This document shows, piece by piece, positions 37,301-53,132 of a DNA stretch of 57,215 bases (within the stretch, counting starts at the first letter, position 1; each line of letters begins with the position of its first letter). The notes beneath the pieces were generated by a model. It did not search any database and was not told where the DNA came from. It saw nothing but the letters and a program-made list of their open reading frames with translations. A program made the translations under genes and the position numbers. The DNA is from a virus (Duplodnaviria; Caudoviricetes): the IMG/VR virus record IMGVR_UViG_3300037167_000012, positions 1 to 57,215 of that record; one strand, 5' to 3'.

Positions 37301-39201
37301 CATTGAAAGACATGAAGGATGCCGTCAGCGGGAAGCCAATCGCAATGGATGCAACTCCGGGGCATCCCCGCCAGTTGGTCAATCCAGATACCGGCGAGAA
37401 AGAATTTCACGGAGACCCGTGGCAGGCCCCTTCCCCGGAGTATGAAATGATAAAGCCGACTGATTCTGGAACCCCGATTGCCGTCCTGAAGCCCTACGCC
37501 GGGCTGATGAAGACCTGCACGGCAGAAAGCGCATTTCGCGGGTCTCCGGCAGGGGAACTTTCGGTTTATTTTAGTTCGATGCTTAAGCACGGCGTCGTAC
37601 TGGTGGGAGACACGTTTCATTACAGCCGCTTGATGCAGTACGGAACCGCAATGCGGAGAGGGGTGCCCTCATTCAACAACGGTTTTGCCGCACTGATGTA
37701 TCGGGCCGAGGATTTGGCGGGGCCGAATGGGGAGCCGGGGCCAGCGGTCAAGTCGGGAGAGGTTTATCCAGAATCGGCAAAATGGGCGCTGGCAAAGGAG
37801 GCCGTCATAGACGACGCTGGAACCCACAAACTGATGAGTCATCAGGAGGTTTTGCAGGAGATGGTCGGGCGAGGTCTTAATGCGACCCGCATTGGAGATG
37901 CCATCTATAAGGACGCAGTCCAGAAGATTCCGCTTGTGGGCGAGGTGCTTTACAAGGCGGTCGGCCCCTGGAACCGATTCCTGTTTGACCGCTTCATGCC
38001 TGGACTGATTTCCGATGGTGCGGTCAGGAATTTTGTGAAGCTGCACCAGGCGAACCCGGACGTGCCTTACTCGAAGCTGATGCGGGATGTCATCACTGAC
38101 ATGAACGTCTATTATGGAAACATGGGCAGGCAGGGAGTGTTCACCAATCCGACACTTCGGGATGCGGCTCAAGTGACCATGCTGGCTCCGATGTGGCAGG
38201 AGGGGCTGATTGGAAAGGAATTGAGGACGATGGGAAGACTGACGGGCATCTCAAACCTGACGGGTCGAAGGGGCGTGCCGCAACTGGGCGCGCTGGGTGG
38301 GGCGGTCACTCGCGGCCTTGCCTCCTACTTCCTGCTGACCCAAGCCATCAACCTGGTTACGCGCCGCCAACTGACCTTTCAGAACAAAGAGAAGGGGCAT
38401 GAGTTGGATGCGTGGATTCCGACGGGCGAAAAGACCGGGATTTGGATTTCCCCGATGTCGGTATTCGCGGAGAAGACCCACGACTTGATACGCCTTTGTG
38501 AGGCCAAGCCCAAAGCGTGGGATGCCATTACCCAAATGGGTGAGAATGCGCTGGGGCCAGTGGGCAAGTTTGCCCACGTCCTGAGAAGCAGCCGGTCTCC
38601 GTCGGGAGAATACCTGACCACCACCCCGTCCGTTATTTCAACAGCAGTTGAGCAGTTGACCCCCACCCCAATTTCTCTAGGCAAGGGAATCCAGTGGGCC
38701 GGATATGCGGCAGGCGTTAGTCCAAAACCTGAACCCGGAACCACTTGGCGGCAAATGATTGCATCTGGAATGGGAATCAAAACCCAGCCCGGACAAGACG
38801 CCAACACTCAGGCTGAGGCGTCGGCCCGGAAGTTCGCGCAGGACAACATGCTCAAAAGCGATTCACAGGTCATCATTCCAACGGACGAGCCGAGCTACGC
38901 CAAGCTGCGCCATGCGTTCAAGATTGGGGATGAAGGTTCAACCAAGAAGATTTTCGATACGCTGGTTTCCAAACGCAAGACCGGCCAAAGCGCCTATGCC
39001 CGCCGTGAGCAGATTGTGAAGGACATGCAGAACTGGGCGCGCCGGCCATTCACTGGAAGCAATAACGGAGACCGGCTGTGGATTCATTCCATGACCGATG
39101 CTGAACGGGAGATGTACAGCAATGCCGTCCAGCAACGCTACGAGCTGCTATACGGCTGGGAGAAGTGGTATCTGACGCAGGTGGGCAATCCGGGTCAGTG
39201 A
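31390..39201 (+). CDS. Giant internal virion/ejection protein (2603 aa) with zincin-like HExxH domain
   Basis: VEFPDGMADEQIKAAL start; GHERIH at 33025-33042; last gene of the structural block. Confidence 0.75.
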   Translation: MPTKIQVEGVGLVEFPDGMADEQIKAALDKEYGQPQAAPFRGALSSLEQGAGLIPKAAAAVQEYLTPKVQRTNVPLWNGEQGDRSGPMSIQSGGQTHTASPPAAIPNAFEVVPRTPLEVVAATKTNPLYKIGQTAAESVPMTPLQEKSNWTKAGEMAGSGAKMALGPLAIPAYAAEPLGEIPDEYTNIKQSNPQMPDDEAADQALSRSVDKGLLTALVFYAIPAAMRKPLGKYLAAKMGTTGFKAWVGGRIGAATEGGVLGAALDLSQKSVEGQKPDSQTAKSAAGLAMANVLFPWREGFKKGAQNASGKPGAAGAAQPEVRPQVGEKTPLRQPGETAGAQTPAAPVEGKAEVPLRAKNYDVQFDDGMNRWVVVNPAGGIESDHPTQSIAVNEANKLHDRDEAAAKPKDILLTREEAEPGGHDKIQAIADKYHLSWDDAVKLVSKERDRYGMVKNLAPESAAEPAKSDLEDEYQSIINEAAAKMDVPVRSVDETDPNQPFSSKKAIGIATIDRKTGTILVNQKRMARFLGAMSPDRRAQAIRSILGHERIHLAATDEDAITYLKSLSGLEVRIGKSIYSMGSTLNEMSDTLWGHELLRQRIEKLSGWRTEEVINAVGKQRWKLESLNALESVVRNIRTRLGTNISPEIRAILDRVQSNITLGKAVASGVSPMAQPGEDETGEQKLNKRQKKNRKADALVNMNTRESISARAKIDEHEALFGKMIGDSGKAADTYGTKIGTRQDFLTRFYKDAGNRAFNEIGEDKDTEEWFVNKFSKDHGVGEGEAREWLSKYRELRDNYHRAVLREWVKSLDETLEFQKKKLQDEPDDAHLQNFIRENQEMRDRFSRELDSGSDQQSFPARPERSKKEDPNQGVFDTIRSAAKFSQMRLAAAGDQEVMAGAEKQKFKDAMGSLAPKEPGPTPRAPNPKAEKMADDVGGLKYIGEWNVKGKPYWMFNITQEGRETTMVVPDTATVDDLAKKKADKIKEYDEAAGQEQFPMSAERGRPSNRKESVNQDKMDFAGASVNTVEEAQKPVPEGERLSAEKAGALPPLSAADLENRADKWMKEQVAATMDKAVKAPTAGGSVALPTFKEFVESMKKQQGGVQPGQLKEMWQGAVDRTLSAASDDQLRAMIQAGFGRESKLARFSRAALSYTKDTPPLELEGEIGVKTSREESAEAAAGRLKRAKDAERPAMFERKASERQEAKEERNAPRRRRMIVSALFKRMVLPAYREDALPQDRKTVTPSEIRYGGGKEISAYQSFDATSQNDPELGKMLVDDARRSGEDPVTTTKRLTVIMDKKSGKVAMVSTYNHPTKGTMLVDPVHPQGHHAPLDDVLKRYRVLYSVLLDQPVKGFKRTFDSVADYNDRFGKEAQGNYSRETSYDPRNVPISEFTEGVEGTEGLEGEGGDVMGPGKKAAMAVTGVGEGASERGSHTPITDVEASAVNNHVVDTLGEEPANPDEVVDVIFDIQDRIGNYQKAAEQYSKLSEELDKIKENPEEGWSEKEKKDAKRIGSQLSKLRIQMDGAKVNPSAISGISKIAQLLQRENPDLTTEELVNKLAQTIYEDKNLEATVARTEKSAAAKAGETARPEVQAKPSETGRDLNMLNRRPPTDVRPENVPPGTMPEFTHNPPVPEATTTPRNPDYLSPEDAEWVNALSLMPEFHADAKDAVRQAAAYKPTEFVPTVEYPEPAKEGERTLTDRPKQPQLKEQSPMSAERLSNELDKKRRQINAVWLRRSSKMEITAAADGADNLAPVAGEHARRTLRLVNKDEMVRSTPIALLACGKVGENPNTGKKFFFYDQKALDSKITQAKLGAIKAQGVMDDPKTSFKEWRLAKQMKAAAERLELIAQYTKDHFKDQDVKDMAMACRRELYDQLVREHEHGVSTTDFGETYFPTRYEGEMFNLDTIRFGSDETIGNRFTARKVFRDHYEAIMHGPFIPKSYDAADIISHRVRQGARAIGRRMWVEALKDMKDAVSGKPIAMDATPGHPRQLVNPDTGEKEFHGDPWQAPSPEYEMIKPTDSGTPIAVLKPYAGLMKTCTAESAFRGSPAGELSVYFSSMLKHGVVLVGDTFHYSRLMQYGTAMRRGVPSFNNGFAALMYRAEDLAGPNGEPGPAVKSGEVYPESAKWALAKEAVIDDAGTHKLMSHQEVLQEMVGRGLNATRIGDAIYKDAVQKIPLVGEVLYKAVGPWNRFLFDRFMPGLISDGAVRNFVKLHQANPDVPYSKLMRDVITDMNVYYGNMGRQGVFTNPTLRDAAQVTMLAPMWQEGLIGKELRTMGRLTGISNLTGRRGVPQLGALGGAVTRGLASYFLLTQAINLVTRRQLTFQNKEKGHELDAWIPTGEKTGIWISPMSVFAEKTHDLIRLCEAKPKAWDAITQMGENALGPVGKFAHVLRSSRSPSGEYLTTTPSVISTAVEQLTPTPISLGKGIQWAGYAAGVSPKPEPGTTWRQMIASGMGIKTQPGQDANTQAEASARKFAQDNMLKSDSQVIIPTDEPSYAKLRHAFKIGDEGSTKKIFDTLVSKRKTGQSAYARREQIVKDMQNWARRPFTGSNNGDRLWIHSMTDAEREMYSNAVQQRYELLYGWEKWYLTQVGNPGQ
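32306..32455 (+). CDS. Overprinted 49-aa basic protein (+1 frame inside the giant gene)
   Basis: GAAAGGAG SD 6 nt before ATG; MPAVSQAQRALLNQKFGHKWVKKHHFDNRGKLPEHK... Confidence 0.6.
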   Translation: MPAVSQAQRALLNQKFGHKWVKKHHFDNRGKLPEHKRQQHQWKEKRKFL

Positions 39202-40853: not shown

Positions 40854-41044
40854 ATAATCTTTCTCCAAAATCTGCAAGCCCATGTCTCGATGCTTTTTTG
40901 TCCATCGCGCCTTATTCTTAATCTCTTGCCGTAATAATCCTTCGGGGGAATGATACTGATAACAACTCCAGTAAGGGAAGTGAGTCCCCATTTCTGGATT
41001 GTTTTGGTCATCACCACTCTATCTCCTATCTCTATTTTGCTCAT
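40850..41044 (-). CDS. Small SH3/KOW-like protein
   Basis: IEIGDRVVM...TGVVISI; ATGA overlap with helicase stop. Confidence 0.6.
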   Translation of the reverse strand: MSKIEIGDRVVMTKTIQKWGLTSLTGVVISIIPPKDYYGKRLRIRRDGQKSIETWACRFWRKII

Positions 41045-42723
41045 GGTTTTATTGCCTCTCTTGTTGGTTGATTGCGTTTCCATCCTGCGTCAGCCACCTC
41101 TTGGATGAGCCTCGACGCTTCAATTTGTTTCATGTCTCTGGTGCTCAATTCAGGATACCACTTCTTGACCAGCTTGCATTGACCGGGCGTGGCCAGTTTG
41201 CCTTTGAACCGGCGCATGATTTCCCCGATGAGCCTTACCGCCTCAGTGTAACTGTAATCGTCAGGGTTGAATCCTTGCCTGACCAAGAAATTGCTGCCCT
41301 TCTCCGAAAGCACGCGCACGTTGTCCCATGCGCCGTGACGAACGGGATGAATGTCCATCACATTGAACGCATCCACGGTCTGCGTGCTGTATTGCACCTT
41401 CGCCAGCAGTCGGTTCTTGCGGGCCTGTTCAGCCAGCCGTTGAGCTTCCAGCTTCTTGCGTATCTTTTCCTCCTCATCTTTGAGCAGGTCGGTCATCAGC
41501 ACCGGCACCGCCGACTGCCTGACGGTATCGGCGGCCTTGCGTGCGGCCTCCTCGCTCACGTTTCCGCTCAGGATGTCGGCAGTACACACCAGCTTATGTC
41601 GGCCAGAGTCCCCAGCGAAGTCCACCAGTCTGCATCTAGGCTTGGCGCTCAGTGAAATAGCCAGCTTTCTTGACGCTCTAGTTGGGTGGGGGTCAACAAC
41701 CCCCGCCAGCGGCCTCATGCAGCGACCGGCTCGCTGGGTATATCGCAACCTCGACTTTGTTGGCGACGCCATTATCACTACCTCCACCTCCGGGCAGTCA
41801 AATCCCTCGGTATAAACATTACAGTTACACAGCACCTGGATTCCGCCCGACTTGAAATCTTCCAACAACTGCCTGCGGGAATCCTTGGGGGTTTTCCCGC
41901 AGACCCATCCAGCCATTCCTGAACGGTGGCGGTTAAATATGTCGCAAAGAATCTCAGCCTGCTTGACTGACGCGGTAAAAACAATCGCCCGCTTGGTTCC
42001 TATGATGGGGATGGAAGCGCCCGCCACTCCTTGCAGGTTACGCTCGGATTCCATGACCGCCGATAGCTCCTTGCCGTTCAGGTCTCCCGCCGTCGTCTTG
42101 ATATGGGAGAAGTCCAAACCAGCTATCGTCACCATCTGCTGCTCTACCGGCACCAGCCAGCCGTCGTGGATTGCATCGAGTATCGGGTATTCAAATGCAG
42201 CCGACTGGAATACCCGCCCCAAAGCCTCCTCATCCGACCTGTCTGGTGTCGCCGTCAGCCCCAGCACCTTTAGGTTCGGGTTGTTTGACGTGAAATAGTG
42301 GATGATGTTTTTGTATGTTTTGGCTGTCGCTCTGTGGGCCTCATCTATAACCAGAAGACCAAACTCTTTTGGGTTTAGACGACCCATCCTTGTTCGGTCT
42401 CCACAGGCCGAATTCAGAGTTTGAACCGTGGCGATTACGACCGGACTTTTGGTGTAGATGTTGTTGGAAGCCATCAGTTCGCCCATTTCGATGGAGCAGT
42501 CCAAGCCAGTGGTCTCCATGATTTTGTCACGGGCTTGGAAGATTAGCTCCTCACGGTGGGCGACGACGAGCGCCCTCTGCGGCTGCACGTCTCCCACCAG
42601 CAGGGCAAATACGATGGTCTTGCCAGTGCCGGTGGGCATCACGGCCATTGTGGATGTGAATTCTAGCCACTTCTCCACAATGGCCTGCCGTATCGCCTGC
42701 TGGTAATCTCTTGGAGTTATCAT
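41041..42723 (-). CDS. Superfamily 2 DExH helicase
   Basis: PRDYQ, PTGTGKT, DEAH, TATP, TEGFD, QRAGR. Confidence 0.95.
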   Translation of the reverse strand: MITPRDYQQAIRQAIVEKWLEFTSTMAVMPTGTGKTIVFALLVGDVQPQRALVVAHREELIFQARDKIMETTGLDCSIEMGELMASNNIYTKSPVVIATVQTLNSACGDRTRMGRLNPKEFGLLVIDEAHRATAKTYKNIIHYFTSNNPNLKVLGLTATPDRSDEEALGRVFQSAAFEYPILDAIHDGWLVPVEQQMVTIAGLDFSHIKTTAGDLNGKELSAVMESERNLQGVAGASIPIIGTKRAIVFTASVKQAEILCDIFNRHRSGMAGWVCGKTPKDSRRQLLEDFKSGGIQVLCNCNVYTEGFDCPEVEVVIMASPTKSRLRYTQRAGRCMRPLAGVVDPHPTRASRKLAISLSAKPRCRLVDFAGDSGRHKLVCTADILSGNVSEEAARKAADTVRQSAVPVLMTDLLKDEEEKIRKKLEAQRLAEQARKNRLLAKVQYSTQTVDAFNVMDIHPVRHGAWDNVRVLSEKGSNFLVRQGFNPDDYSYTEAVRLIGEIMRRFKGKLATPGQCKLVKKWYPELSTRDMKQIEASRLIQEVADAGWKRNQPTREAIKP

Positions 42724-42724
42724 T

Positions 42725-42988
42725 TTATGAATGCAACATAACCTGTTGAACTTTTTGACCTGCTAATGTGGGCGATATTGTCCACCCGCCCCACGGAGTC
42801 CGATAGCTGCTGAACTGCATTTGTGGGTGTCCTTTGAGTTTCACAATCACAACAGCGTCGGGGCTGATTTTGGGGCGGAACACGTTACTGTTCTCAGGAA
42901 TCAATTCAGCCGCAGCTTTGCGTTGGTAATACGCCGCAATCCTTTGCTGCTTCCTGTTTTTGTAACCACTTGAATGATAACGAGACAT
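42725..42988 (-). CDS. Hypothetical protein
   Basis: Stop 1 nt before helicase ATG. Confidence 0.6.
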   Translation of the reverse strand: MSRYHSSGYKNRKQQRIAAYYQRKAAAELIPENSNVFRPKISPDAVVIVKLKGHPQMQFSSYRTPWGGWTISPTLAGQKVQQVMLHS

Positions 42989-43026
42989 GCTAATTAGTTG
43001 ATTTTAGGTGATGGTTAATTGCTTTG

Positions 43027-43287
43027 TTAAGCCAAATACCAATAGACGCGCTGTTTCCGCTCCTTGTAGAGTCGGACGACCGACACGCGGCCAGCCTTGT
43101 TGCGGTTCGTGAATGAGTATTCAGACATTTCTGGCGTGTGAATTTTTACGTCGATATACCACCCATGATTCACAAGAGCAGATTGAACTTGCTCAAATGT
43201 TTTTCCACGCTTTTGGCCTAACAAGCGGTTGGAGCCAACGTCCACCGCGCCTTCAGTTTGTTGTTGAGTTGTTTGCATATTGTTCAC
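43027..43287 (-). CDS. Cassette 1 hypothetical protein
   Basis: Starts in attC1 loop; stop TAA is the TTA of the GTTAAGC core. Confidence 0.6.
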   Translation of the reverse strand: MNNMQTTQQQTEGAVDVGSNRLLGQKRGKTFEQVQSALVNHGWYIDVKIHTPEMSEYSFTNRNKAGRVSVVRLYKERKQRVYWYLA

Positions 43288-43332
43288 TTTCAGTTTTCCG
43301 GCGGTGGCCGTTGCTCACCCGCAGCGTTATCT
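43216..43332 (+). repeat. attC site 1 (117 bp)
   Basis: GCCTAAC-AAGCGGTTGGAGCCAACGTCCACCGC...GCGGTGGCCGTTGCTCACCCGCAGC-GTTATCT; two extra bases in left arm. Confidence 0.85.
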
Positions 43333-43643
43333 GGCTCAGGTTCCCATTTCATCGGGAGCGCCAAGCCATAGGACGCCAGCAGTATTTTCCCGCATTTATT
43401 GCAGGGGCACTCCACTTGCTGGTCATGCCTTCTGTTCATTTTGGAGAGGTAGCCCGTATGGTTACAAAATCGCTGTCGGAGCCAGATAACACCGCGCCGG
43501 AGCCAATCGGGCTTGCCCTTCCAGTTTGCGCGGCGGCTTCTATTGCGGTCATCACACTCGCACCAACCACACATGTCAGGCCCGGAGCCGGCCAGCCCTT
43601 GAAGCTCGATTCCGCAGCGTTTGCATTTCAGAGGTTCTATCAT
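43290..43643 (-). CDS. Cassette 2 Cys-rich hypothetical protein
   Basis: GAAAGGA SD, ATGA overlap, CxxC pairs. Confidence 0.65.
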   Translation of the reverse strand: MIEPLKCKRCGIELQGLAGSGPDMCGWCECDDRNRSRRANWKGKPDWLRRGVIWLRQRFCNHTGYLSKMNRRHDQQVECPCNKCGKILLASYGLALPMKWEPEPDNAAGEQRPPPEN

Positions 43644-43685
43644 TTGTTCCTTTCGACGCCCGATTGCTCAGCTTGGACGTTGGGC
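43484..43685 (+). repeat. attC site 2 (202 bp, long coding loop)
   Basis: AGATAAC-ACCGCGCCGGAGCCAATCGGGC...GCCCGATTGCTCAGCTTGGAC-GTTGGGC. Confidence 0.75.
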
Positions 43686-43966
43686 TGCTTTTCGCGATCT
43701 CGCAGTTTGTTGCCGCCTGCCACGCGATAGAACTTGTCGAGGTCGCGTTTTTCTTTCGGGTCTAGTGGTCTGCCAAAGACCCTCTCAAAAGTGCTTCGAG
43801 ATGCACCGCACCGCTCGCACACATCTCCACTCCATGAGTTGTAGTGGGTTACTCGGATGCGCCTGATTTTATGGATTCCAAGTTTGCAGAGCATTCGGGC
43901 GAGCAGCCCAACAAGCCCGCCGGAGCCAACATCGGTTGGCCGCTTCAGTTTTTCGATAGCATTCAT
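43640..43966 (-). CDS. Cassette 3 hypothetical protein (C-x4-H ... CxxC)
   Basis: GAAAGGAC SD and ATG lie inside attC3 loop; LCKLGIHK...CERCG. Confidence 0.65.
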   Translation of the reverse strand: MNAIEKLKRPTDVGSGGLVGLLARMLCKLGIHKIRRIRVTHYNSWSGDVCERCGASRSTFERVFGRPLDPKEKRDLDKFYRVAGGNKLRDREKQPNVQAEQSGVERNK

Positions 43967-44017
43967 TGTTAGTCCTTTCGTCATTAGTCCGATGTGGCTC
44001 ATCGGGCAGCGTTAGGC
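43906..44017 (+). repeat. attC site 3 (112 bp)
   Basis: GCCCAAC-AAGCCCGCCGGAGCCAACATCGG...CCGATGTGGCTCATCGGGCAGC-GTTAGGC. Confidence 0.88.
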
Positions 44018-44223
44018 GGCATGGCGTCGCTCATCGTTTTTCCGTCCGCTGTCAGGATAAGGAATGAGCCTTTGCACTCCTCGCCGTGATATTTATGATT
44101 CGTGACAACCAAGTTTGCGGTGTGCTTATTTTGCGCGACCGGCACTTGATTCTGGCACGCCGGACATATTGCCAGAGGCCGGTTATCTCTTTTTTTTCTT
44201 TCGTATCTCATAAAATGCCGCAT
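43999..44223 (-). CDS. Cassette 4 zinc-finger-like protein
   Basis: CPAC...H...CKGS; stop inside attC3 right arm. Confidence 0.6.
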   Translation of the reverse strand: MRHFMRYERKKRDNRPLAICPACQNQVPVAQNKHTANLVVTNHKYHGEECKGSFLILTADGKTMSDAMPPNAAR

Positions 44224-44328
44224 AACAAGTGCGTCGAGCCAATCCCGGTTGGCCGCTGCACTTTATTCGTTCAGGTTTCTGGTTGTTGTGTGTCGTGAGT
44301 CCGGGATGGCTCACGCACGACGTTAGAT
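44220..44328 (+). repeat. attC site 4 (109 bp)
   Basis: GCATAAC-AAGTG-CGTCGAGC-CAATCCCGG...CCGGGATG-GCTCACG-CACGAC-GTTAGAT; canonical 5/6-bp spacers and extrahelical C and A. Confidence 0.92.
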
Positions 44329-44544
44329 GCTTTCGAGTAGCGACAGATGGCTGGCGCGTTCTCGCATCAGGCCACAGTCGCAGGCTTCCGATTCGTTCGT
44401 GATTATTCCAAGCTTGCCGTTGGCGTTGGTCACTTTGGAGACGAAGCACCAGTCAAAGTGCCGTCCGTAGTTTTCGAGCGCGGAGTTTTTCGTTACCAGC
44501 GCGGCTCGCAGAGCTTCGATTTTTTGTTGTTCGTTCATACGCAT
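44323..44544 (-). CDS. Cassette 5 hypothetical protein
   Basis: H..WC...CDCG motif; start at attC5 R'', stop in attC4 R'. Confidence 0.6.
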   Translation of the reverse strand: MRMNEQQKIEALRAALVTKNSALENYGRHFDWCFVSKVTNANGKLGIITNESEACDCGLMRERASHLSLLESI

Positions 44545-44630
44545 CTAACCAATCGGTGCAGGCAACGGCGGGTTGCGCTGCGGGTTAATTCGGGCGTCAG
44601 GCTCCGCCGTGCCTGACCTCACTGTTAGCG
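44543..44630 (+). repeat. attC site 5 (88 bp)
   Basis: ATCTAAC-CAATC-GGTGCAGGCAACGGCGG...CCGCCGTGCCTGACC-TCACT-GTTAGCG. Confidence 0.88.
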
Positions 44631-44854
44631 GCCCGCATGTACCGCCTCAGCTTGGTGTTCTTGTAGATGGCCTTGCTGCCTTGATGCTTGCGGACTCTCG
44701 CAGAATTGGCCTTGGCGTGCTTCAGGCATCTGCCGCCAAACACAGATGGCTTGCCGCAGGTCATGCACAGTCCGGACTTGTTGTGCCTGAGTTGGCATTT
44801 TCTCTGCCGCGAGACTGGCAGGTCGGTGAACTCGTCAATGATTTTGGCTCTCAT
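44597..44854 (-). CDS. Zinc-finger-like protein; its 3' end is the array insertion point
   Basis: GLCMTCGK...CLKH; ATGA overlap; last 8 codons come from attC5. Confidence 0.7.
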   Translation of the reverse strand: MRAKIIDEFTDLPVSRQRKCQLRHNKSGLCMTCGKPSVFGGRCLKHAKANSARVRKHQGSKAIYKNTKLRRYMRAANSEVRHGGA

Positions 44855-45603
44855 TTTGCCACCTTCTTTCTCATCTCCTTGAGCTTAACATCGGTGTACT
44901 GGTCGTAGAACAGCTTGCTGACCAGCCCCCGCCCGCTGCACACGCGGCAGGTGTCAGGCAGCTTGCCCTGACATGCCGGACAGACTGCATGAGGCATGGC
45001 CCGCTTGATGTCCGAATAGGTGTTGCTGAGGTCGGCCATCAGCGACGTGAAGTTGACTTCGCTCCACAGGGCATCCTTGGTTTCATACGCCTTCAGACAG
45101 GTGGACTTGATTTTGATTACGGCATTGAGCAGCACCTGAATCTCGTCCTTGCGCTTCCAGTATGGGAGGGCTTTGGTGGGCACATCGAACCCTTCGGAGT
45201 CCTTCTCTTTTGCCTTGGCGTCAACCACTGCCGGCTTGCCGATGGCGGCCATTAGCTTGTCAGAGGGAGTCCCCTTCAACTTAATAGCTTTGTTTATTGA
45301 GACTGGGTGGAAACTAGTTTCCGCTGGTTTCCCTGATTTGCAAGGACTTACATCGGTTATTTGCTTGATTTTGTCCATTGTCGGCTTGGCCAAAACCAAC
45401 CTGTTGGCCCATTGCTTTGTGATGCCGCATTCAAGCTCACAGAAGTCCTTCCATGAGTCGTATTTGAGCTTCCAGATTCTGCGCTCCTTGGCCTCGGCGA
45501 CCACCTCCATCAGGTTGAGTTTCTCCGTTGCCTCACGCCAGTTCTTCAGAACCTTCGAGATGCGGACGAACGCCTGTTCGTCGGTGTCGGTGTATTTATT
45601 CAT
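44851..45603 (-). CDS. Hypothetical DNA-binding protein with C-terminal CxxC-CxxC
   Basis: YDSWKDFCELECGITKQWANRLV HTH-like; CPACQG...CRVCSGRG. Confidence 0.65.
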   Translation of the reverse strand: MNKYTDTDEQAFVRISKVLKNWREATEKLNLMEVVAEAKERRIWKLKYDSWKDFCELECGITKQWANRLVLAKPTMDKIKQITDVSPCKSGKPAETSFHPVSINKAIKLKGTPSDKLMAAIGKPAVVDAKAKEKDSEGFDVPTKALPYWKRKDEIQVLLNAVIKIKSTCLKAYETKDALWSEVNFTSLMADLSNTYSDIKRAMPHAVCPACQGKLPDTCRVCSGRGLVSKLFYDQYTDVKLKEMRKKVAK

Positions 45604-45660
45604 AGTTTCATTTCTGTTTGTTATAGACGTAGCAGCAGAACATTATCCAGAGCACAAACA

Positions 45661-46569
45661 TCACTCCGGCTGCGATGAGTTGGGGTTGCATTTTTTCTCC
45701 TTCGCCTTTCTGTTCTTCTTGAGCGCCAGCTTGATGGCCCGCGTGTCGCACGGTTTCATGGCCTCACGAACCCGCTTGGCATAGGACGGATACATACCCA
45801 CAAGGAACTCCCGGCCATTCGTCGTGTCCATGACCTTGAGCAACTGGCGGCCTTCATGGAACGCCAGAATGCACTGGGCCAGAATCCTCGATGTTTTGTC
45901 GGGGTTGAGTCCGATGTTCTGCTCCAGATACTTCACGAACGTCTTGGTCGGTGTGGTCAGCCCATCCAGTGTGGAGATTTGGCGGCAGAACTCGCGCGCC
46001 TTCTCCTGCTCGCCGTGATGGTACAGTGTCAGCGGCCCGACGATGTAGCCCTTGCGCTTGCCGTGGTCGAGGCAGTCAATCACGGATTCAATGTCCTTGC
46101 CCCACAGTTCGTGGATGAGCATTGAATTGGTCGTGGAGAGCCTTCTTGTCCCGCCTGACGGATAGACCATCAGGGCGATTGAGCGGCACGCAGCAGCCGT
46201 CAGTGCGCCGTTCTTGATTCCATGCAACTGCATCTGCTGGCCAGTCTGACGGAACCTGCCCCGGTCAATGGTGTCCATCGAGTTAAGCTCGATGCCGTTC
46301 TTGTTCTCCGACACCGGAATGTCGTATGTGACCAGCGACTCGATGGTCTTGCCGCTGAACACGACCGCCCAGAGCCGGTGCTGCCCATCGCAGAGGTTCT
46401 TGTTGGTGTCAAAGGCCAGCCCTTGATGATTCAGCACCCACCTTCCATTTCGCATGTCGGCAGCATACGCCTGAACGGTGTTCTCCGACAGCTTGCGGTT
46501 GTAGGGGTTGTGATTCTCCAGAATGTCAATGGCCCATTCGGGAGTGATTACTTCGGTCTTCGTTCTCAT
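45661..46569 (-). CDS. ParB/Srx-fold DGQHR protein
   Basis: ITPEWA...NRKLS...YAADMRNGRW...LCDGQHRL...DTIDRG. Confidence 0.8.
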   Translation of the reverse strand: MRTKTEVITPEWAIDILENHNPYNRKLSENTVQAYAADMRNGRWVLNHQGLAFDTNKNLCDGQHRLWAVVFSGKTIESLVTYDIPVSENKNGIELNSMDTIDRGRFRQTGQQMQLHGIKNGALTAAACRSIALMVYPSGGTRRLSTTNSMLIHELWGKDIESVIDCLDHGKRKGYIVGPLTLYHHGEQEKAREFCRQISTLDGLTTPTKTFVKYLEQNIGLNPDKTSRILAQCILAFHEGRQLLKVMDTTNGREFLVGMYPSYAKRVREAMKPCDTRAIKLALKKNRKAKEKKCNPNSSQPE

Positions 46570-46829
46570 GGCTTGACCTCCGTGCATTTAATGCGAACAA
46601 GGGTGGTGGATTGTTCCAGTTCCAATAACCATCCGTCGGGTATATTTTTTCCTATTGTTACCCCAGTTAGATATTCCCAATACTCCCTCTTTGCCTCCCA
46701 GTGTGCGTTTTGGGGAGCCGATGTCATTGCGTCCCGAAGAATGCAGAGAACCATTCTCTGCTTCTGGGTTGGAATCACATACTCCACCCTCGGCGGAGTT
46801 GGTTTAACTTTCTTTCGGAATGGCCACAT
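46566..46829 (-). CDS. Hypothetical protein
   Basis: GAAAGGAC SD before MWPF; ATGA overlap. Confidence 0.6.
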   Translation of the reverse strand: MWPFRKKVKPTPPRVEYVIPTQKQRMVLCILRDAMTSAPQNAHWEAKREYWEYLTGVTIGKNIPDGWLLELEQSTTLVRIKCTEVKP

Positions 46830-46830
46830 A

Positions 46831-47931
46831 TTAGTCCTTTCTCTTGAATGACGGTTCGTTTTCCTTTGTTTCAACCAGTCCGGCAGTCAGGGCGGATAGC
46901 TCGTCAGTGAGCTTCTTGCCCTTGGTTTGTGTGACTGCCGCCAGTTGTTCTTTCAACTTCGTTTTGGCCACGCCGATGCAGCCCATGAACTGCTGCAATG
47001 AGCCGCCTCTGGCCGAGAAGCGGTCAAATACTCCCTGTGGGTTGGTGATGGTCTCGCGCTTGTTGCCGGGTTTCAGCTCGTAGCCTGGAATAGCTTCGGG
47101 GTCGGCTGCCAGCAGCTTCTTCATCTCGTCCCGGCAGTCATCAATCCATTTCTGGGCGATGCCAACCCGGTCAAGGAATGCCGCCCGCTGCAATGGCGTC
47201 CATTGAACGACTGGAGTGTCGAATCCGATTGCCGTCTCTGGAACCATGCTGCTGGCCCATTTGCTGTAAGCCTCACATTTGGACTTCGCCAAGCAGAACT
47301 TGCACTGCGCCTCGCCCGCCGTTCGTGGAGCGTCCGGTTTGTTGCTGGCTCCGACCCTCAGATACAACTGCTCGCGCGCCTTCATTATGTCGGCCCTTGA
47401 ATACGAGCACAGCTCCGGCTCCCATGTCACCAGCGGCTGGATGACGCAGCATACAATCTCCGACAGCAGGGGATTGCTCACGTCATACAGGCAGACTTGG
47501 TCTCGCAACTGCATGTTCTTGGGAGAGTCGGGAATGTCCCCTTGAAGGCATTTGTACTCCAGAATGAGCGCCTTGGTTCCCATGCGATAGACCGTGTCAA
47601 TCTGGCCTGAGTGCCGAAGCCCGTCGGCCCAGTTAATCCAGTATCGGATTTCACGAACCGGCTTGGGCACGGCATCAGTCCCGAAGACTTTGAGCACAAC
47701 CTTCTTCTCGATTTCACAGCAGGCGTCGTAGGTGTCCACCTGCTCGATGTTCAACCCGGTCGGGTCTTGTTTGGCGAGCGCGGCATGAATCTGCGTGCCA
47801 TGCGTCGCGTCGTCCGTCTTGATGTCGGGGCAGCCCTTCTGGGCCATGAATCTCCCGGCACATAGCGAATCAGGAAGTGCGCTTGAGGCACTGGTGAACT
47901 CGCCGCGTGATTGCGTGTTTGGTGTGGTCAT
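46831..47931 (-). CDS. PD-(D/E)xK exonuclease (DUF2800/Cas4-like), RecT partner
   Basis: SASS...C, GTQIH, GQID, LEYK, QLRDQ, CKFCLAKSKC. Confidence 0.8.
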   Translation of the reverse strand: MTTPNTQSRGEFTSASSALPDSLCAGRFMAQKGCPDIKTDDATHGTQIHAALAKQDPTGLNIEQVDTYDACCEIEKKVVLKVFGTDAVPKPVREIRYWINWADGLRHSGQIDTVYRMGTKALILEYKCLQGDIPDSPKNMQLRDQVCLYDVSNPLLSEIVCCVIQPLVTWEPELCSYSRADIMKAREQLYLRVGASNKPDAPRTAGEAQCKFCLAKSKCEAYSKWASSMVPETAIGFDTPVVQWTPLQRAAFLDRVGIAQKWIDDCRDEMKKLLAADPEAIPGYELKPGNKRETITNPQGVFDRFSARGGSLQQFMGCIGVAKTKLKEQLAAVTQTKGKKLTDELSALTAGLVETKENEPSFKRKD

Positions 47932-48221
47932 TTGTCTCCTATTGTTCCGCAGCCGTGTTCAGCGTACTGCAAGTATTTTCCGATTTTGGCTTTCTTGGAA
48001 ATAACGCCCTTCTCAGATGGGGTTGGTATCAACCCGCGCTCAATCAGCATTTGCATGATTCCAAGAAGGTCGTCCAGCTCCTCCGTTATTCTTTCCGCGT
48101 TGGTCTTGGATTGACCGGGCTGGCATTCAGATAGTCCAAAGCGCAATGCCTTGGACACCCTCTGGCCGACCTCGTCGCACTCCTCAGACAGAATCAGCAG
48201 TAGATGTTCGTCGGTGGTCAT
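47928..48221 (-). CDS. MazG-like nucleotide pyrophosphohydrolase
   Basis: LSEECDEVGQRVSKALRFG...EELDDL. Confidence 0.75.
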   Translation of the reverse strand: MTTDEHLLLILSEECDEVGQRVSKALRFGLSECQPGQSKTNAERITEELDDLLGIMQMLIERGLIPTPSEKGVISKKAKIGKYLQYAEHGCGTIGDK

Positions 48222-49336
48222 TTCACTCCTTTGATTTTGGCCGTTATCTCCGCATTCTGGTCATGCAAAAGAGTCAGCACATCCGGCTGCTTATCAGCCA
48301 GAATGTCCAGCGTGGTTATGTCGGCCTCGATGACTCCATTCGTTTGCAGGAAGTCAATGACCTGCGGCTCTTTGATTCCAGCCAGCCCGAAGAAGCCCTT
48401 GACGGCCTTGAGCGTGTTGTATTCAGGCTTCGACGTGTCGTGCGGCTCAGGGTGCATCTCAGTCGCAGGGGCCGCAGACTCAAACGCTTCGTCGGCAGGA
48501 TTCTTAACCTTTGCCGGTTCGCGTTTGATTAGCGGAGGCGGCGGCGGTTCCGGCGCAGGCGGTGGGGCATCCACTTGAGGTTCGCCAAAGTCCGGCTTGG
48601 AAGGAATGTCCGTGCTGTCCACGAACTCCACCTTGCCCGTCTCGGCGTCAATGACTGCGCCTTCATCCATCCCCAGAGCCTTCTGCATCTGGATGGACTT
48701 CGGCCCCCAGAGCTTCAGCAGCGACTTGAGGACGGTCTTCAGGGCCATCCGGTCGAAGTTGGTGAACCAGCCCGTGTTCTGTTTCTTCGCGTCGTTTAGC
48801 CCCGCATTGTAAGCCTTGCTGAACTTCTTGGCGTGGTTGGTGATTTGCTCCACCGTCCAGTAGGAGCCGCGCTCGAATCCGTTGAGCAGTTTGAACTTTG
48901 CCGCGTAGCCAATGACCTTGCCCTCTGGATTCTTCGGGTTGACCGTAAGCTCTCCCGAAAGCTCGTCATAGTCCAGAAGTTCTCCTTCGTGCACTATTGT
49001 CCAGCCAAGGTTCTTGTATTGGCCTGACCGCATGGCGAGTTGGGAGAATCCGACGTAGCCGATTTGGAACGTGGCTTTGTCGCCATAGGGGACGATGTGG
49101 GCCTCACCCAGATTTGGGTCAATGCTCAAGTCGAGGGCTGCCGCCGTCAGTGCCGCCCCGATGACTGAATTGGGGTCGCACTTCTGCAACTGCCACGACT
49201 GGTTGACGATTTGGACGAGCGCTGCCGCAAACTGCGGGGCGCGTGTGCCCATGATTTCCTTGAGGCGATTCTTCACCTCGTCTTTTTGCACAACGTCTTT
49301 CAAGGCTGTGCTTTTTATCAATGATTGATTGCTCAT
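48218..49336 (-). CDS. recT: RecT-family ssDNA annealing protein
   Basis: LQKCDPNSV...LGEAHIVPY...FQIGYVG...RSGQY...MALKTVLK. Confidence 0.92.
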   Translation of the reverse strand: MSNQSLIKSTALKDVVQKDEVKNRLKEIMGTRAPQFAAALVQIVNQSWQLQKCDPNSVIGAALTAAALDLSIDPNLGEAHIVPYGDKATFQIGYVGFSQLAMRSGQYKNLGWTIVHEGELLDYDELSGELTVNPKNPEGKVIGYAAKFKLLNGFERGSYWTVEQITNHAKKFSKAYNAGLNDAKKQNTGWFTNFDRMALKTVLKSLLKLWGPKSIQMQKALGMDEGAVIDAETGKVEFVDSTDIPSKPDFGEPQVDAPPPAPEPPPPPLIKREPAKVKNPADEAFESAAPATEMHPEPHDTSKPEYNTLKAVKGFFGLAGIKEPQVIDFLQTNGVIEADITTLDILADKQPDVLTLLHDQNAEITAKIKGVK

Positions 49337-49461: not shown

Positions 49462-49490
49462 ATTTTAGCTTACAGACCGCTCAATGTCAA
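49462..49490 (-). promoter_or_regulatory. Near-consensus sigma70 promoter for the recT operon
   Basis: TTGACA-17 bp-TAAAAT on - strand. Confidence 0.8.
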
Positions 49491-50668
49491 GCGCCGTAGC
49501 CGAATTTCTGTTCTTGTTCGACGCAGTATGCCTCCCATTCGGCGGGACTCATTTCGTGCTGCTTCTTGGTTTCCATTGCCAGCTCCTCCTGCAATTCGCC
49601 CTGCACTTCCTCTTGCAGGTCGGCGGGTAATGGTGGCGTGGCCTTTTCCAGCACCTGAACCTCCTTGAACCGCTTGAGTATTTCCGGCAGCAGGGAGTTG
49701 TGGGTCTTCATGGCGTCGAGCACCGGAGCCAGCTCTGCATCTCCGGCCAAGTTCTCCAGAATGCCCAGCAGCTCCTCATCCACTGCCGCCCTTATTTCCG
49801 GGGTCAGCTTGTTGCCAGCGGCCTTGAGTTCGTCCGCGAAGAAGTTCTTGCGAACCCATTTCCGCAGCATCTTGATGGCCTTGGATGGGTAGCCCGTATA
49901 GCCGGTGTCGTTCTCGTCGTATGTTTGGCTTCCATTGCGGCCATACCTGCCGGTATAGACGACTCCATTGCCGCCGTAGCCGGGCCATTTCTTTTCAATC
50001 AGGTTGGCCACCCACTCCTCCGGGAAGGGCGTGTCGGCGGGCGGGGGAATGACCATCTGCCGCTCGGCCATACTGTTCAGGTCGGGATAGACGCCAAACA
50101 TATCGGCCATTTCGTCGGCTTTGTCCCTCACTTCCTTGCTAAAGTCCCAAAACTCGCGCAGGTCGGGCTGGAACTTGCAGCCCCGGTAATAGAACCGGGA
50201 GTGAATGCTGTATTTCTCCTTGTTCATGTCGCCAATGGTGATGTGGATTCCCTCCTGGGTCTTCTCATTGTCCGAGTCGGTTCCCGATTGGAACGCCCCG
50301 GCATCGCAATGGTGGTGAACCGTTCCGTAGAGCATCCAGTCGTCGCCGAACCTGGCCCTTTGAATGGCCGTGTTGGGGTCGTCAGGCAGCTCCTTGGTGG
50401 ACAGCCCGCAGCTTGCTTCCTGCGGGAACGCCCACGCCTTCCATCCATGCTCCAGATGGACGAACAGCCGCACCTGCGACTCGCCGTGCGTCTTGAGATA
50501 CGACCATTTGAAGAACGACAGCACCTCGTTCCACATGGCGGGCGTGAACTTCGGCCCCGTGTAGCGGAATGCCGCCGTCGTCTGCTTGATTTGATGCGTC
50601 ATTTTGCATTCAAACAGCGGGTGGGACTTTTGTTCCACCAGCTCTGATTTTGCTTCCAGTATTTTCAT
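49487..50668 (-). CDS. JAB/MPN-domain metalloprotease (prokaryotic Ub-system peptidase)
   Basis: GESQVRL catalytic Glu; GTVHHHCDAGAFQSGTD = HxH-x7-S-x2-D; GIHITIG. Confidence 0.88.
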   Translation of the reverse strand: MKILEAKSELVEQKSHPLFECKMTHQIKQTTAAFRYTGPKFTPAMWNEVLSFFKWSYLKTHGESQVRLFVHLEHGWKAWAFPQEASCGLSTKELPDDPNTAIQRARFGDDWMLYGTVHHHCDAGAFQSGTDSDNEKTQEGIHITIGDMNKEKYSIHSRFYYRGCKFQPDLREFWDFSKEVRDKADEMADMFGVYPDLNSMAERQMVIPPPADTPFPEEWVANLIEKKWPGYGGNGVVYTGRYGRNGSQTYDENDTGYTGYPSKAIKMLRKWVRKNFFADELKAAGNKLTPEIRAAVDEELLGILENLAGDAELAPVLDAMKTHNSLLPEILKRFKEVQVLEKATPPLPADLQEEVQGELQEELAMETKKQHEMSPAEWEAYCVEQEQKFGYGA

Positions 50669-50695: not shown

Positions 50696-52108
50696 TTAAA
50701 AGATTGCAGGGGATTCTGCATCCAGCGCCCTTGCCTTGTCCGGCAGATTGGCATGAACCCAGTCTCTGAGCCTTGTTTCAAGTGTGGAGACTGGGTAATC
50801 CCAATCAGTATCGTCCGAGCCTTCGCATTCTTGGTTGTCGTATTCGTAGGTGTCGCCGTCCGGCTCCATGTTCGGCTCCGTCCGTTCGTGGATGTCGTCG
50901 GCAATGGTCTCTTTGGCCGCATCCAGCAGCCCAGCCCAACTGTCCGCGCCTTCAGCAATGCTCTCCAGCTCACCCGACGTGAATCTGAATTCACTCCTGC
51001 CATAGGTTCCGACGGAGTAGCGGCATGTTCCCCGCTCGTGCCCGGTAAAGTCCACGGTGATTTCAAGTCCGGGCATCGCTGACACCTTAGCCTTCTTTGC
51101 CTCAACCTTGCCTTGGATGGATTGGAGCCAGTCTTCCAGCTTTTCAATCGTGTTGCAGTCGTCCGGCGGCATCTGCTTGGTCTGTTTGAGTATCCAGCCC
51201 CGCACAAACTCATTCTTCGGTGCCGTTTCCATCAGCTTGATGAACTCAAAACCGAAATAGACCGGAACCAGCTTGCGCTTGATGGGCGTGCCATCGGGAT
51301 TGGTTCGCACAACTTTGTTGGCCCATTCGGGAATCCCAACCTCACCCGGAATTGGCAGAATCTCCGCGATTTCACCTTCATCTTCGCAGGCCATCGTACC
51401 GCCGTAATTTCCATAGATGTGCGCCTTTTCCCGGTCTTGGGTTTCGCCTCTACCCCCCATCCATTTCCCGTCTGCCAACCTGATAATCAGGGGGTGTCTA
51501 TGTCTTCCATCCCGTTGCCGATGGTCATACATTCGCTGCATTTCCGCCCGGTTGAATTCCGCGATGGCATCAGGAACCCGGCGACCTGCTGGCTCTGGAG
51601 CCACGCCTTCAAGGAATTCAACAGTGTTGCCGGGAGTGGCACCTCCATTCGCCATGCCGTAAGTCTCGAAGATTAAAGCTTCATCCCGGTTGGGGCAGCG
51701 GCGCATACCTTCCCCGCGCGCAACATACCCCCTCGGCGTTGAGATGATGCACCTCCCCTGGATTCTTGGGTCATGCGTGTTGTTATTATAGATTCGTTCA
51801 GCTTCCTCCGTGCTGATTGTTCTTATTGCCGCCGGAACTCGCCGTGCCGGAGCTGGGGCGGCTGCATCTTCATCGGGAAGGATTTCAAATATGGAATCTC
51901 CCTCTCCAGCCGACGGGGTCGCACCGTGTCCTAGAAACACAAATGCTTCGTTCCGGTTGCGGGTGTATGTGGTGTGCGCCGCATCCCCACTGCGGTAGGT
52001 TCCGTCGGGGCGTCTGATTATCTGGCGCATTTGAGATTCGTCGCCGCCATTGTCCCATGCTGCTTGCATATCGTCATGCGTCATTTCTCTTATTGCTGGT
52101 GGTATCAT
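50696..52108 (-). CDS. Protein with three ~85-aa N-terminal repeats and acidic C-terminal domain
   Basis: (I/V)PxAI...II...G...xRxxA.(I/V)(F/Y)...E(I/F)L three times; ATGA-coupled to E1. Confidence 0.75.
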   Translation of the reverse strand: MIPPAIREMTHDDMQAAWDNGGDESQMRQIIRRPDGTYRSGDAAHTTYTRNRNEAFVFLGHGATPSAGEGDSIFEILPDEDAAAPAPARRVPAAIRTISTEEAERIYNNNTHDPRIQGRCIISTPRGYVARGEGMRRCPNRDEALIFETYGMANGGATPGNTVEFLEGVAPEPAGRRVPDAIAEFNRAEMQRMYDHRQRDGRHRHPLIIRLADGKWMGGRGETQDREKAHIYGNYGGTMACEDEGEIAEILPIPGEVGIPEWANKVVRTNPDGTPIKRKLVPVYFGFEFIKLMETAPKNEFVRGWILKQTKQMPPDDCNTIEKLEDWLQSIQGKVEAKKAKVSAMPGLEITVDFTGHERGTCRYSVGTYGRSEFRFTSGELESIAEGADSWAGLLDAAKETIADDIHERTEPNMEPDGDTYEYDNQECEGSDDTDWDYPVSTLETRLRDWVHANLPDKARALDAESPAIF

Positions 52109-52782: not shown

Positions 52783-53132
52783 ATAATTCCAAATCCCCCC
52801 TGCGCGGTGATTACCAGCGCCCTTTTTACCGGCGTAATTGGTGGAACAGCTTCCAGAACCGCCATCCTCTCAAGCCCCCGCTGGACGATTTCATCGAACC
52901 TGCTTATGTCATTGCTGTTCATCGCCGCCCGGAACTGAATGCTGCAATTAAGCATCAATGCCATTTTAGCCCTGCTCATCCCGTCAAGCCGCGAGGCTTC
53001 GGGAAGACTCTGGAACCATCTCAGCTTGGCATCAAGTTCCTTCATCAGCTTGGCTGGGTCTTCGTGGCTATTTCTGTGTGGAGCTTCCGGGGCGGTCGTG
53101 GCCGTTTCCACTATTGCCTTTAGCGCGCTCAT
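52779..53132 (-). CDS. Hypothetical helical protein between E2 and E1
   Basis: ATGA-coupled on both sides. Confidence 0.65.
   Translation of the reverse strand: MSALKAIVETATTAPEAPHRNSHEDPAKLMKELDAKLRWFQSLPEASRLDGMSRAKMALMLNCSIQFRAAMNSNDISRFDEIVQRGLERMAVLEAVPPITPVKRALVITAQGGFGII

Follow-up and report, generated by a model that had tools for sequence, protein, structure and literature searches.

Can a phage that encodes no integron integrase carry, and exchange, integron gene cassettes? The question is raised by the virus record IMGVR_UViG_3300037167_000012 of IMG/VR, which we analysed over its full 57,215 bp (hereafter the window); the record has direct terminal repeats and a completeness rating of complete. 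At positions 43026-44630, an earlier note had recognized five imperfect palindromes resembling attC, the recombination sites of integron cassettes, and had proposed that they bound five cassettes whose genes all run antisense and which the phage gains, loses and shuffles with the integrase (IntI) of its host. The five sites are genuine integron attC sites, since the model of their family recognizes the attC sites of a class 1 integron, the family adjoins integron integrase genes, and a complementarity of cassette ends runs through the whole family. We read the region as a cluster of attC sites lacking an integrase (CALIN), with five, possibly six, cassettes that are exchanged at the attC cores, most likely by an integron integrase acting in trans, and put the probability of this reading at roughly 0.8.

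The five attC sites

Each of the five palindromes begins with YAAC and ends with GTT on the + strand, and all of them lie where the earlier note had placed them. They were scored with a covariance model, R2, which derives from 40 other viral loci (117 elements) and includes no sequence of the window; the whole genome was searched with filters off. Site spans are given on the + (top) strand, from the R'' 7-mer through the R' 7-mer, and R2 matches on the - (bottom) strand.

43216-43332, top strand +: attC-1, R'' GCCTAAC, R' GTTATCT; R2 match 43210-43340 on -, 59.6 bits, E 3e-11
43484-43685, top strand +: attC-2, unusually long at 202 nt; R2 match 43475-43693 on -, 42 bits, E 2e-7, with a long loop insertion
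43906-44017, top strand +: attC-3, R'' GCCCAAC, R' GTTAGGC; R2 match 43900-44025 on -, 99.1 bits, E 8e-20
44220-44328, top strand +: attC-4, R'' GCATAAC, R' GTTAGAT; R2 match 44214-44336 on -, 97.4 bits
44543-44630, top strand +: attC-5, the most degenerate site, R'' ATCTAAC, R' GTTAGCG; R2 match 44537-44637 on -, 43.3 bits, E 1e-7

A search with IntegronFinder or an attC covariance model had been named as a check; R2, the model of this family, serves as a proxy for it and matches all five sites on the - strand, at 42 to 99.1 bits. The next-best match in the genome reaches 14.7 bits (E 0.22), and the + strand reading of the same five sites scores at most 10.5 bits. AAC and GTT are present in every site, and three of the five R' boxes (GTTGGGC, GTTAGGC and GTTAGAT) fit GTTRRRY fully, with GTTATCT and GTTAGCG deviating from it. 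Four sites measure 88-117 nt; attC-2 owes its 202 nt to a coding insertion in the loop. Its stem arms (43504-43512 and 43658-43666) enclose a loop of about 150 nt (43520-43643) which encodes, fused in frame, the CxxC..CxxC Zn-ribbon-like N-terminus of a 117-aa protein. An attC with a coding insertion in its loop is unusual. Minimum-energy folding gives long imperfect stems at four of the five junctions, attC-1 among them, with z-scores from -1.1 to -2.8, and a z-score of +1.7 at the junction with the 150-nt loop; the scores are modest because the loops are large. The extra, bulged bases that had been assigned to the left arm of the + strand are seen in the folds and in the R2 alignment alike.

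Two other readings of the conserved arm were tried and rejected. A sigma-54-like or phage-promoter reading of TTGGCTCC..CTTGTTA misfits in its spacing, and the motif is the attC L'/R' arm. A conserved arm-encoded N-terminal peptide (DVGSxxLxG) was likewise dropped, as the arm is read in different frames by different open reading frames (ORFs).

The attC family and its strand

A first model, made from three window sites and two sites of one relative, found elements in only 2 (L026 and L001) of 80 IMG/VR loci with a homolog of the helicase that flanks the array, each locus being a stretch of up to 8 kb on either side of the helicase. These elements occupy other genome positions than those of the window and always share the orientation of the genes around them. 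With a gapped pattern derived from the conserved arms, 40 loci on 36 viral contigs were found, with 117 elements at E <=0.01 and arrays of up to 19 per contig; within every one of the 40 loci, all elements share one strand.

In the alignment of the 117 elements, pairing holds for 84% of cells as against 66% in shuffles, the former figure being somewhat inflated by the fit of the alignment to the structure of the model, and covariation scores 0.396 as against 0.126; none of 500 shuffles reaches either value. Pairing falls to 31-47% when the partner is slid by 1-3 columns. In the inner (L-box) helices, 94-99% of cells pair and double compensatory changes are numerous; the AAC and GTT triplets are near-invariant, and a single base bulges from the 3' arm in the sense of the model. 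Pairing in the middle helix reaches just 38%, and this helix is therefore taken to be an unpaired central spacer. This is the layout that Nivina et al. 2016 describe for attC sites, with an R box, a spacer left unpaired in the centre, an L box carrying an extrahelical base, and a variable loop.

As a control, R2 was run on a plasmid-borne class 1 integron with intI1 on the + strand and the cassettes aadB and blaOXA on the - strand. It finds the aadB and blaOXA attC sites in the right intergenic gaps, at 45.9 and 36.2 bits (E 1e-9 and 2e-7), on the + strand, opposite the cassette genes; the gene strand yields only 21.1 and 1.9 bits. Because the class 1 matches oppose the cassette genes, the sense of R2 corresponds to the canonical bottom strand, and the - strand of the window is therefore the bottom and the + strand the top. 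The same assignment, which the earlier note had reached from the extrahelical bases, follows from the geometry relative to intI (see below) and from the extrahelical base lying on the arm assigned to L'' in the part of Nivina et al. 2016 on site structure.

A search of all six frames with PF00589 returned no match, in keeping with the earlier statement that the genome encodes no tyrosine recombinase. The window holds five attC sites within 1.4 kb and no PF00589 match in 57 kb, which makes it a CALIN in the sense of IntegronFinder, for which two or more neighbouring attC sites away from any intI suffice. It is not a complete integron, as no intI was found in the genome (attI and Pc were not searched for).

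Cassette ends record crossovers at the core

The sites divide the region into the following cassettes, with limits given on the top strand from the TT of one core through the G of the next.

43027-43326, +: cassette 1, limits from GTTAAGCCAAA/TTTGGCCTAAC; holds an 86-aa ORF, 43027-43287 (-)
43327-43679, +: cassette 2, ends exactly complementary over 12 nt; holds the 117-aa Cys-rich ORF, 43290-43643 (-)
43680-44011, +: cassette 3, ends exactly complementary over 11 nt; holds an ORF at 43640-44002 (-)
44012-44322, +: cassette 4, holds a 74-aa Cys/His-rich ORF, 43999-44223 (-)
44323-44624, +: cassette 5, holds a 73-aa ORF, 44323-44544 (-)
42717-43026, +: possible degenerate cassette 0, with the exact 9-nt pair GTTATCATT/AATGATAAC; holds an 87-aa ORF, 42725-42988 (-)

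The first bases of each cassette were said to complement the cassette's own R'', and the five pairs are indeed exact or one base off. GTTATCTGGCTC/GAGCCAGATAAC (12 nt), GTTGGGCTGCT/AGCAGCCCAAC (11 nt) and GTTAGATGC/GCATCTAAC (9 nt) are exact, and GTTAGGCGGCAT/ATGCCGCATAAC (12 nt) and GTTAAGCCAAA/TTTGGCCTAAC (11 nt) have one mismatch each. We counted exact pairs of the form GTTx/x'AAC, of at least 9 nt and 100-450 nt apart, in the whole genome and in 100 shuffles. The genome contains 7 such pairs as compared with 0.83 expected (shuffle maximum 3), and 4 of the 7 stand in tandem, head to tail, in 42716-44549. With a minimum of 11 nt and one mismatch allowed, 5 of 7 pairs fall in that interval.

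Besides the five cassettes, the pair GTTATCATT/AATGATAAC (at 42716/42981) may mark a sixth, decayed one that is absent from the earlier note. Its left core overlaps the helicase start codon, and its attC is a 44-nt remnant before cassette 1 with a non-significant R2 score (7.2 bits, E 9.7).

The signature extends to the whole family. On the other viral contigs, we compared the 9 nt after GTT with the 9 nt before AAC. The GTT flank of a site is complementary to the AAC flank of the next site at 6.93 of 9 positions (n=55), as compared with 3.85 of 9 for the AAC flank of its own hairpin (n=104) and 3.67 of 9 for random pairs. At the very first base after GTT, the frequency of complementarity is 0.93 with the next site vs 0.51 with its own. 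Bacterial arrays of the probable host phylum, Verrucomicrobiota, carry the same signature (8.00 vs 6.08, n=50). The halves of the L box stay complementary and the partner switches right after GTT, and past crossovers are therefore placed at the core. This is where integron integrases cut, and homologous exchange would not be confined to it.

Natural populations differ by exactly two cassettes

Variable cassette order in reads and relatives had been proposed as a check on the gain, loss and shuffling of cassettes. Contigs from four peat metagenome runs (X17-X20) were aligned to 42000-45600, and the following indel emerged.

43327-44011, no strand: natural 685-bp indel, exactly cassettes 2 and 3

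All four runs contain a joint between 43320 and 44006, at which 685 bases are skipped and 9 letters fit either side. It falls within the 9-mer GCAGCGTTA, common to attC-1 (43321-43329) and attC-3 (44006-44014), which contains G|TT. The full form coexists with the deleted form in the same runs. In X20, the short form stands on a 17,521-nt contig (depth 10.6, shorter side 255) beside long-form contigs of depth 3-4; in X17, a 736-nt contig spans the long form at depth 7.2, as compared with 3.9 for the joint contig. If the assembly word length is 31, as we assume, an identity of nine bases is too short for the joint to be a de Bruijn artefact. The 685-bp indel is the product expected of attC x attC excision or insertion.

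In X18, contigs break exactly at 43326 and 43681, the cores that bound cassette 2, and their loose ends differ from the window. Single short contigs only, they hint that cassette 2 may also exist in another context in this run, a hint to which we give no weight here.

The closest relative reached is a 9.3-kb metagenome contig whose helicase is 73% identical to that of the window, and in which the order of ParB-like gene, 250-aa gene and helicase is preserved. Only one attC (47.3 bits) and two unrelated small ORFs stand between its 250-aa gene and its helicase. The two-cassette indel at the cores and the different content of the closest relative give direct population support to the gain, loss and shuffling that the earlier note had envisaged.

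Integron integrases and the probable host

A tyrosine recombinase (PF00589) is found in 6 of the 36 attC-bearing viral contigs and in none of the 10 that are at least 90% complete. In three viral contigs (L098, L120 and L095), integron integrases matched by TIGR02249 lie within a few hundred bases of the elements, at 347, 347 and 263.8 bits (cut-off 265), and one of them is 44% identical to IntI1. These integrase-bearing contigs may be fragments of bacterial genomes, or else phages or prophages that possess a complete integron. The integrase of L120 (5200-6192, +) is identical in L098 (979-1971, -), L095/L123 likewise carry an integron integrase, and attC sites together with phage-like genes (e.g. 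a PAPS-reductase-like ORF) adjoin these integrases. A 557-aa ORF of L120 (6254-7927, -) resembles, by eye, a second tyrosine recombinase.

A pattern scan of one genome per prokaryote species returned at least 120 stretches. By our count, 58 of 80 among the matches listed bear Verrucomicrobiota-type names: Verrucomicrobiae, subdivision 3 and Limisphaerales metagenome-assembled genomes (MAGs), Chthoniobacter, an Opitutaceae isolate and Geminisphaera colitermitum TAV2 occur among them, and some of the Mb-sized contigs among the matches listed have up to 14 exact matches per 8 kb. The earlier note had suggested looking for the same attC family beside intI in candidate hosts. TIGR02249 scores above its cut-off in all five Verrucomicrobiota genomes tested, some of which hold several integron integrases. 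The host arrays are very uniform, with about 100 bits to R2 and 113 nt per site; a homogeneous attC family is also the mark of the Vibrio cholerae repeat (VCR) arrays of Vibrio, the textbook sedentary chromosomal integrons. The arrangement of the class 1 control recurs in three viral and three Verrucomicrobiota contigs, with the elements upstream of the intI 5' end and, in the sense of the model, facing intI.

As the same elements fill host chromosomes that encode intI, the phage carries the attC family of Verrucomicrobiota chromosomal integrons. Peat and permafrost metagenomes are the source of the runs in which the phage occurs, and the virus is probably a phage of Verrucomicrobiota from peat.

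Two observations on the bacterial genomes may be added. The Verrucomicrobiota MAG G038 (the genome of L165) has at least 4 separate integron integrase matches above the cut-off, many weaker tyrosine recombinase matches, and attC arrays on several Mb-sized contigs. Several MAGs labelled 'uncultured Bifidobacteriaceae' (L130, L138, L163, L169, L177, L178, L189, L195 and L204) also contain this GC-rich attC family; since the family is otherwise found mainly in Verrucomicrobiota, these bin labels look doubtful.

Cassette genes are reversed in phage arrays relative to host arrays

All small ORFs of the array lie on the - strand, as had been stated and as the list of ORFs bears out, and with + as the top strand the cassette genes are indeed antisense. 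The canonical layout, with the ORF on the top strand and attC at its 3' end, is thus reversed in the window; this layout is usual in cassettes, and it does not strictly define them. We compared ORF strand in phage and host arrays by the start-to-stop ORF cover of each cassette body on both strands, a crude measure applied to arrays from few genomes.

Viral arrays: bottom strand wins in 48, top strand in 14, ties in 2, of 64 bodies
Verrucomicrobiota arrays: bottom strand wins in 8, top strand in 41, tie in 1, of 50 bodies

Fisher's exact test of the contrast between viral and host arrays gives p = 8e-11. Within the host arrays, three of seven top-strand ORFs (YcxB, DUF4279 and DMP19-like) match Pfam above the cut-off, vs none of three bottom-strand ORFs. 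Only weak strand signals come from the cover by stop-free frames and from long flanking ORFs, which are co-directional at 29 of 40 loci. ORFs of at least 40 aa that start inside an element do not discriminate between the two groups (57 of 106 viral, 36 of 56 host).

The Verrucomicrobiota MAG integrons resemble the window in their attC family and in the cassette-end signature. They differ from it in having intI at one end, tens of cassettes and genes mostly on the top strand, whereas the phage array has no intI, five cassettes and bottom-strand genes. The published CALIN of the virulent Tetrasphaera phage TJE1, from the survey of Qi et al. 2023, also differs. Its orientation is the usual one, as R2 gives two matches, of 27.5 bits (E 3e-4) and 16.7 bits (E 0.07), which sit at the 3' ends of orf1 and orf2 and on the strand that does not encode them, whereas in the window the genes occupy the bottom strand and an attC stands at the 5' end of each gene. 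Because TJE1 is oriented in the usual way, the reversal is a feature of this phage group and not of phage CALINs generally.

The cassette genes and their surroundings

In three of the five cassette genes, the start codon lies in the attC loop and follows a GAAAG(G) motif; the other two begin just past the core. Two of the five frames stop in the core (TAA in ..TAAC), and the remaining three continue into the next attC for between a few and twelve codons. The 86-aa ORF of cassette 1 has its ribosome-binding site (RBS) and start in the loop of attC-1 and its TAA stop at the cassette boundary; the 73-aa ORF of cassette 5 ends with the TAA inside the core ..TCTAAC, and the 74-aa ORF of cassette 4 with a TGA within the conserved GATGAGCC box of attC-3. 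The 117-aa ORF of cassette 2 extends into attC-1 with its final 12 codons. Its product matches phrog_4188 (E 4e-4, residues 55-87), and its C-terminal part has a homolog at L001:10570-10824 (46% identity over 56 aa, E 7e-15). Similarity between the two begins at the cassette boundary, and the N-termini encoded by the loops are unrelated. The ORF of cassette 3 is DUF1660-like from M37 (E 0.002, under the Pfam cut-off) and matches phrog_2670 (E 1e-3). All these family matches are weak. The 87-aa ORF of the possible cassette 0 has homologs of 64-65% identity in four attC-bearing viral loci (L111, L105, L082 and L112). When the seven small proteins were compared with 263 loci by tblastn, relatives were found only for the 87-aa protein, in these four viral loci, and for the 117-aa protein, in L001; none was found in the host arrays, of which the sample was small.

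Two PAPS-reductase-like genes, at L026 391-1191 and L120 3382-4338, start in an attC loop and read through its arm, with the N-termini ..VVSSDLLAR.. and ..VASSDLLCP... As these genes begin in attC loops, larger phage genes are also framed as reversed cassettes.

The hairpins themselves are what blastn finds conserved when all loci are compared with all others (e.g. 98% over 109 nt). One long block common to L104 and L109 (98% over 879 nt) includes both flanking hairpins. The region of attC-4 (44219-44327) is 98% identical over 109 nt to L101:6453-6561 and 92-95% identical to L103:8408-8514, L109:2117-2224 and L114:304-414. This site, including its 50-nt loop, thus occurs at 92-98% identity in five viral contigs with unrelated flanks; either it is held very uniform, or it spread recently.

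Seven small ORFs, all of - orientation, form the cluster to which the array belongs; a 250-aa ORF bounds this cluster on one side and a superfamily II helicase on the other. The phage genome is complete, and the array sits in its early or replication operon.

41041-42723, -: superfamily II helicase, with ResIII, Helicase_C and phrog_16 matches; the conserved flank used for finding relatives
44597-44854, -: 85-aa Cys-rich ORF upstream of attC-5 and ending inside it; the array's flank towards the 250-aa gene
44851-45603, -: 250-aa ORF, flank of the small-ORF cluster
46831-47931, -: exonuclease, phrog_69, E 8e-18
48218-49336, -: RecT-like annealing protein, phrog_148, E 8e-66

The genes for the RecT-like protein and the exonuclease lie a few kb from the array, and the phage therefore owns a homologous-recombination pair. 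Elsewhere in the genome, a 2603-aa ORF (31390-39201, +) and the ORFs at 49487-50668, 50696-52108 and 53129-53911 have no PHROG match at E 0.001. A blastn search of 41000-47000 against 50,697 phage records gave no match. With a single helicase sequence as the query, no relatives were found among the viral contigs; an alignment used as the query did find them. Helicase homologs number in the thousands, mostly on 54-59-kb contigs and with few in Verrucomicrobiota MAGs.

How the cassettes may be exchanged

We propose that cassettes enter and leave through site-specific exchange, in which two folded attC sites would cross over at the G|TT of their cores. This reaction would most likely be catalysed in trans, by an integron integrase that either the infected cell or a co-infecting element encodes. 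The host phylum has large chromosomal integrons of the same attC family. From the sequences at hand, we infer that the recombining enzyme would be an integron integrase such as the host IntI. In this phage lineage, the reading frame of a cassette gene leaves through the far end of the cassette and is closed either by the TAA that the core supplies (..TAAC) or within the next attC, where the stop is often the TGA of the conserved GCTGAGCC box. Cassette exchange would presumably take place during infection, and the small Cys-rich proteins may confer some benefit.

Alternative explanations

Several points weigh against this reading. The action of an integrase on the sites of the window is something that we infer, and the host assignment rests on MAG labels and on the sharing of attC sites. 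attC-2, at 202 nt, lies beyond the usual attC length range of 57-141 nt, and attC-5 folds poorly, its minimum-energy fold failing to close as one stem. An Rfam scan of 42000-46000 at E up to 10 gave three chance-level matches, none of them attC-like, in a database that possibly has no attC family. In X17, X18 and X19, the joint has short sides (21, 30 and 21 letters) that may come from other organisms, and these joints count for little taken singly. The 9-nt identity at the joint lies in arms that are alike, by eye, over about 20 nt, and since the phage encodes a RecT-like protein and an exonuclease and the arms are similar, a deletion driven by homology or slippage could yield the same joint. 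The array is nearly unchanged in 20 runs of 17 studies from 2018 to 2025 (92-99% of sampled words), so turnover is not fast.

The presence of that recombination pair in a phage without an integrase is one argument for supposing that the sites are attC by descent and now mere dispersed repeats, with cassettes gained and lost through RecT/exonuclease recombination or slippage, much as in the PeSL cassettes discussed below. The joint of the 685-bp indel in a 9-nt identity flanked by similar arms would suit this explanation, and near-identical hairpins in different phages with unrelated flanks (98% over 109 nt) would make homology available. Homologous exchange, however, would fall anywhere along a repeat of about 100 nt, whereas the L boxes stay 94-99% paired while the partner switches at the first base after GTT, and the joint observed contains the core. 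A 9-nt identity is also short for RecT-type annealing. We therefore regard dispersed repeats as an unlikely account of the array. Less probable still, and to our minds improbable, is that the hairpins are chiefly RNA elements of the early operon, serving in processing or stability or presenting an RBS and start codon in the loop, with the likeness to attC being secondary. All sites do lie on the mRNA-sense strand, three of the five loops hold a start codon with the Shine-Dalgarno-like GAAAG(G), upstream ORFs end in the 5' arm, and the - strand folds are stable (z -2.4 to -2.8 for three). None of this explains the end-to-end complementarity of the cassettes, the recognition of class 1 attC sites, the linkage to intI or the indel at the cores; moreover, as the elements of host arrays lie antisense to the genes, a role in mRNA cannot define the family. 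The hairpins may nonetheless have a second, RNA-level role in phages. That the sites are chance palindromes in a GC-rich gene cluster, for which one could cite that the folding z-scores are only modest, is refuted by the pair statistics, the covariation, the family signature, the R2 matches and the recognition of class 1 sites, and has next to no probability.

Relation to known systems

Phage-borne CALINs have precedents. According to the main text of Qi et al. 2023 (PMC9892861), 10,705 NCBI phage genomes contain 3 complete integrons, one In0 and 17 CALINs; some of the CALINs belong to virulent phages, and 5 of 6 virulent-phage attC sites recombine with attI1 under IntI1. Integrase-less clusters of attC sites in phages have therefore already been described in print, and those CALINs, as far as the main text presents them, resemble the window in having at least two attC sites with small ORFs and no intI. 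A term search of that main text finds no mention of antisense genes, Verrucomicrobiota, metagenomic viruses or natural indels; the search did not extend to the supplement that lists the 17 CALINs. Among the titles and abstracts that our literature searches returned, none reports reversed phage cassettes or attC families common to phages and Verrucomicrobiota.

The attC sites of aadB and of a blaOXA-10-like cassette on a Pseudomonas aeruginosa plasmid, both of class 1, have the same R box, L box, bulge arm and AAC/GTT cores as the phage sites. They are shorter, with a loop of 3-4 nt vs 45-150 nt in the phage, and they follow top-strand genes at the 3' end.

T4-type phages reportedly possess promoter-early stem-loop (PeSL) cassettes, a system said to have been described by Arbiol and colleagues in 2010. 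Like the array in the window, these are said to be small accessory phage genes bounded by a repeated stem-loop and shuffled between phages; unlike it, they are said to involve homologous recombination and promoters, with no AAC/GTT core, end-to-end complementarity or link to an integrase.

Implications

Three points are new here: the reversal of the gene strand relative to host arrays, how far the family extends, and the polymorphism of cassettes in nature. Integron cassette exchange is extended from a few cultured phages to widespread uncultivated phages of soil and peat, and the phage array is tied to the chromosomal integrons of a candidate host phylum through a common attC family. Natural populations contain two genome forms that differ by exactly two cassettes at attC cores.

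We also consider, tentatively and with somewhat less than even confidence, that Verrucomicrobiota phages run a mirror-image cassette pool of their own, in which the attC family, and presumably the integrase, is that of the host, the gene lies on the bottom strand, the RBS and start codon sit in the loop, and the stop comes from the core or from the neighbouring box. If so, any reversed cassette would be expressed wherever it landed in a phage operon, and host cassettes there would be antisense and silent. In a genome replicated co-directionally, the strand that folds would moreover be the mRNA-sense one, which serves as lagging-strand template, and phage arrays could then be more recombination-prone than host arrays. 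Reversed cassettes could also inform how cassettes are born.

Taken together, a phage without an integrase of its own appears able to trade small accessory genes through borrowed machinery. The reversed gene strand, as compared with the host arrays and with TJE1, offers a clean and testable contrast, and it bears on strand choice and array orientation in cassette dynamics as well as on the origin of cassettes.

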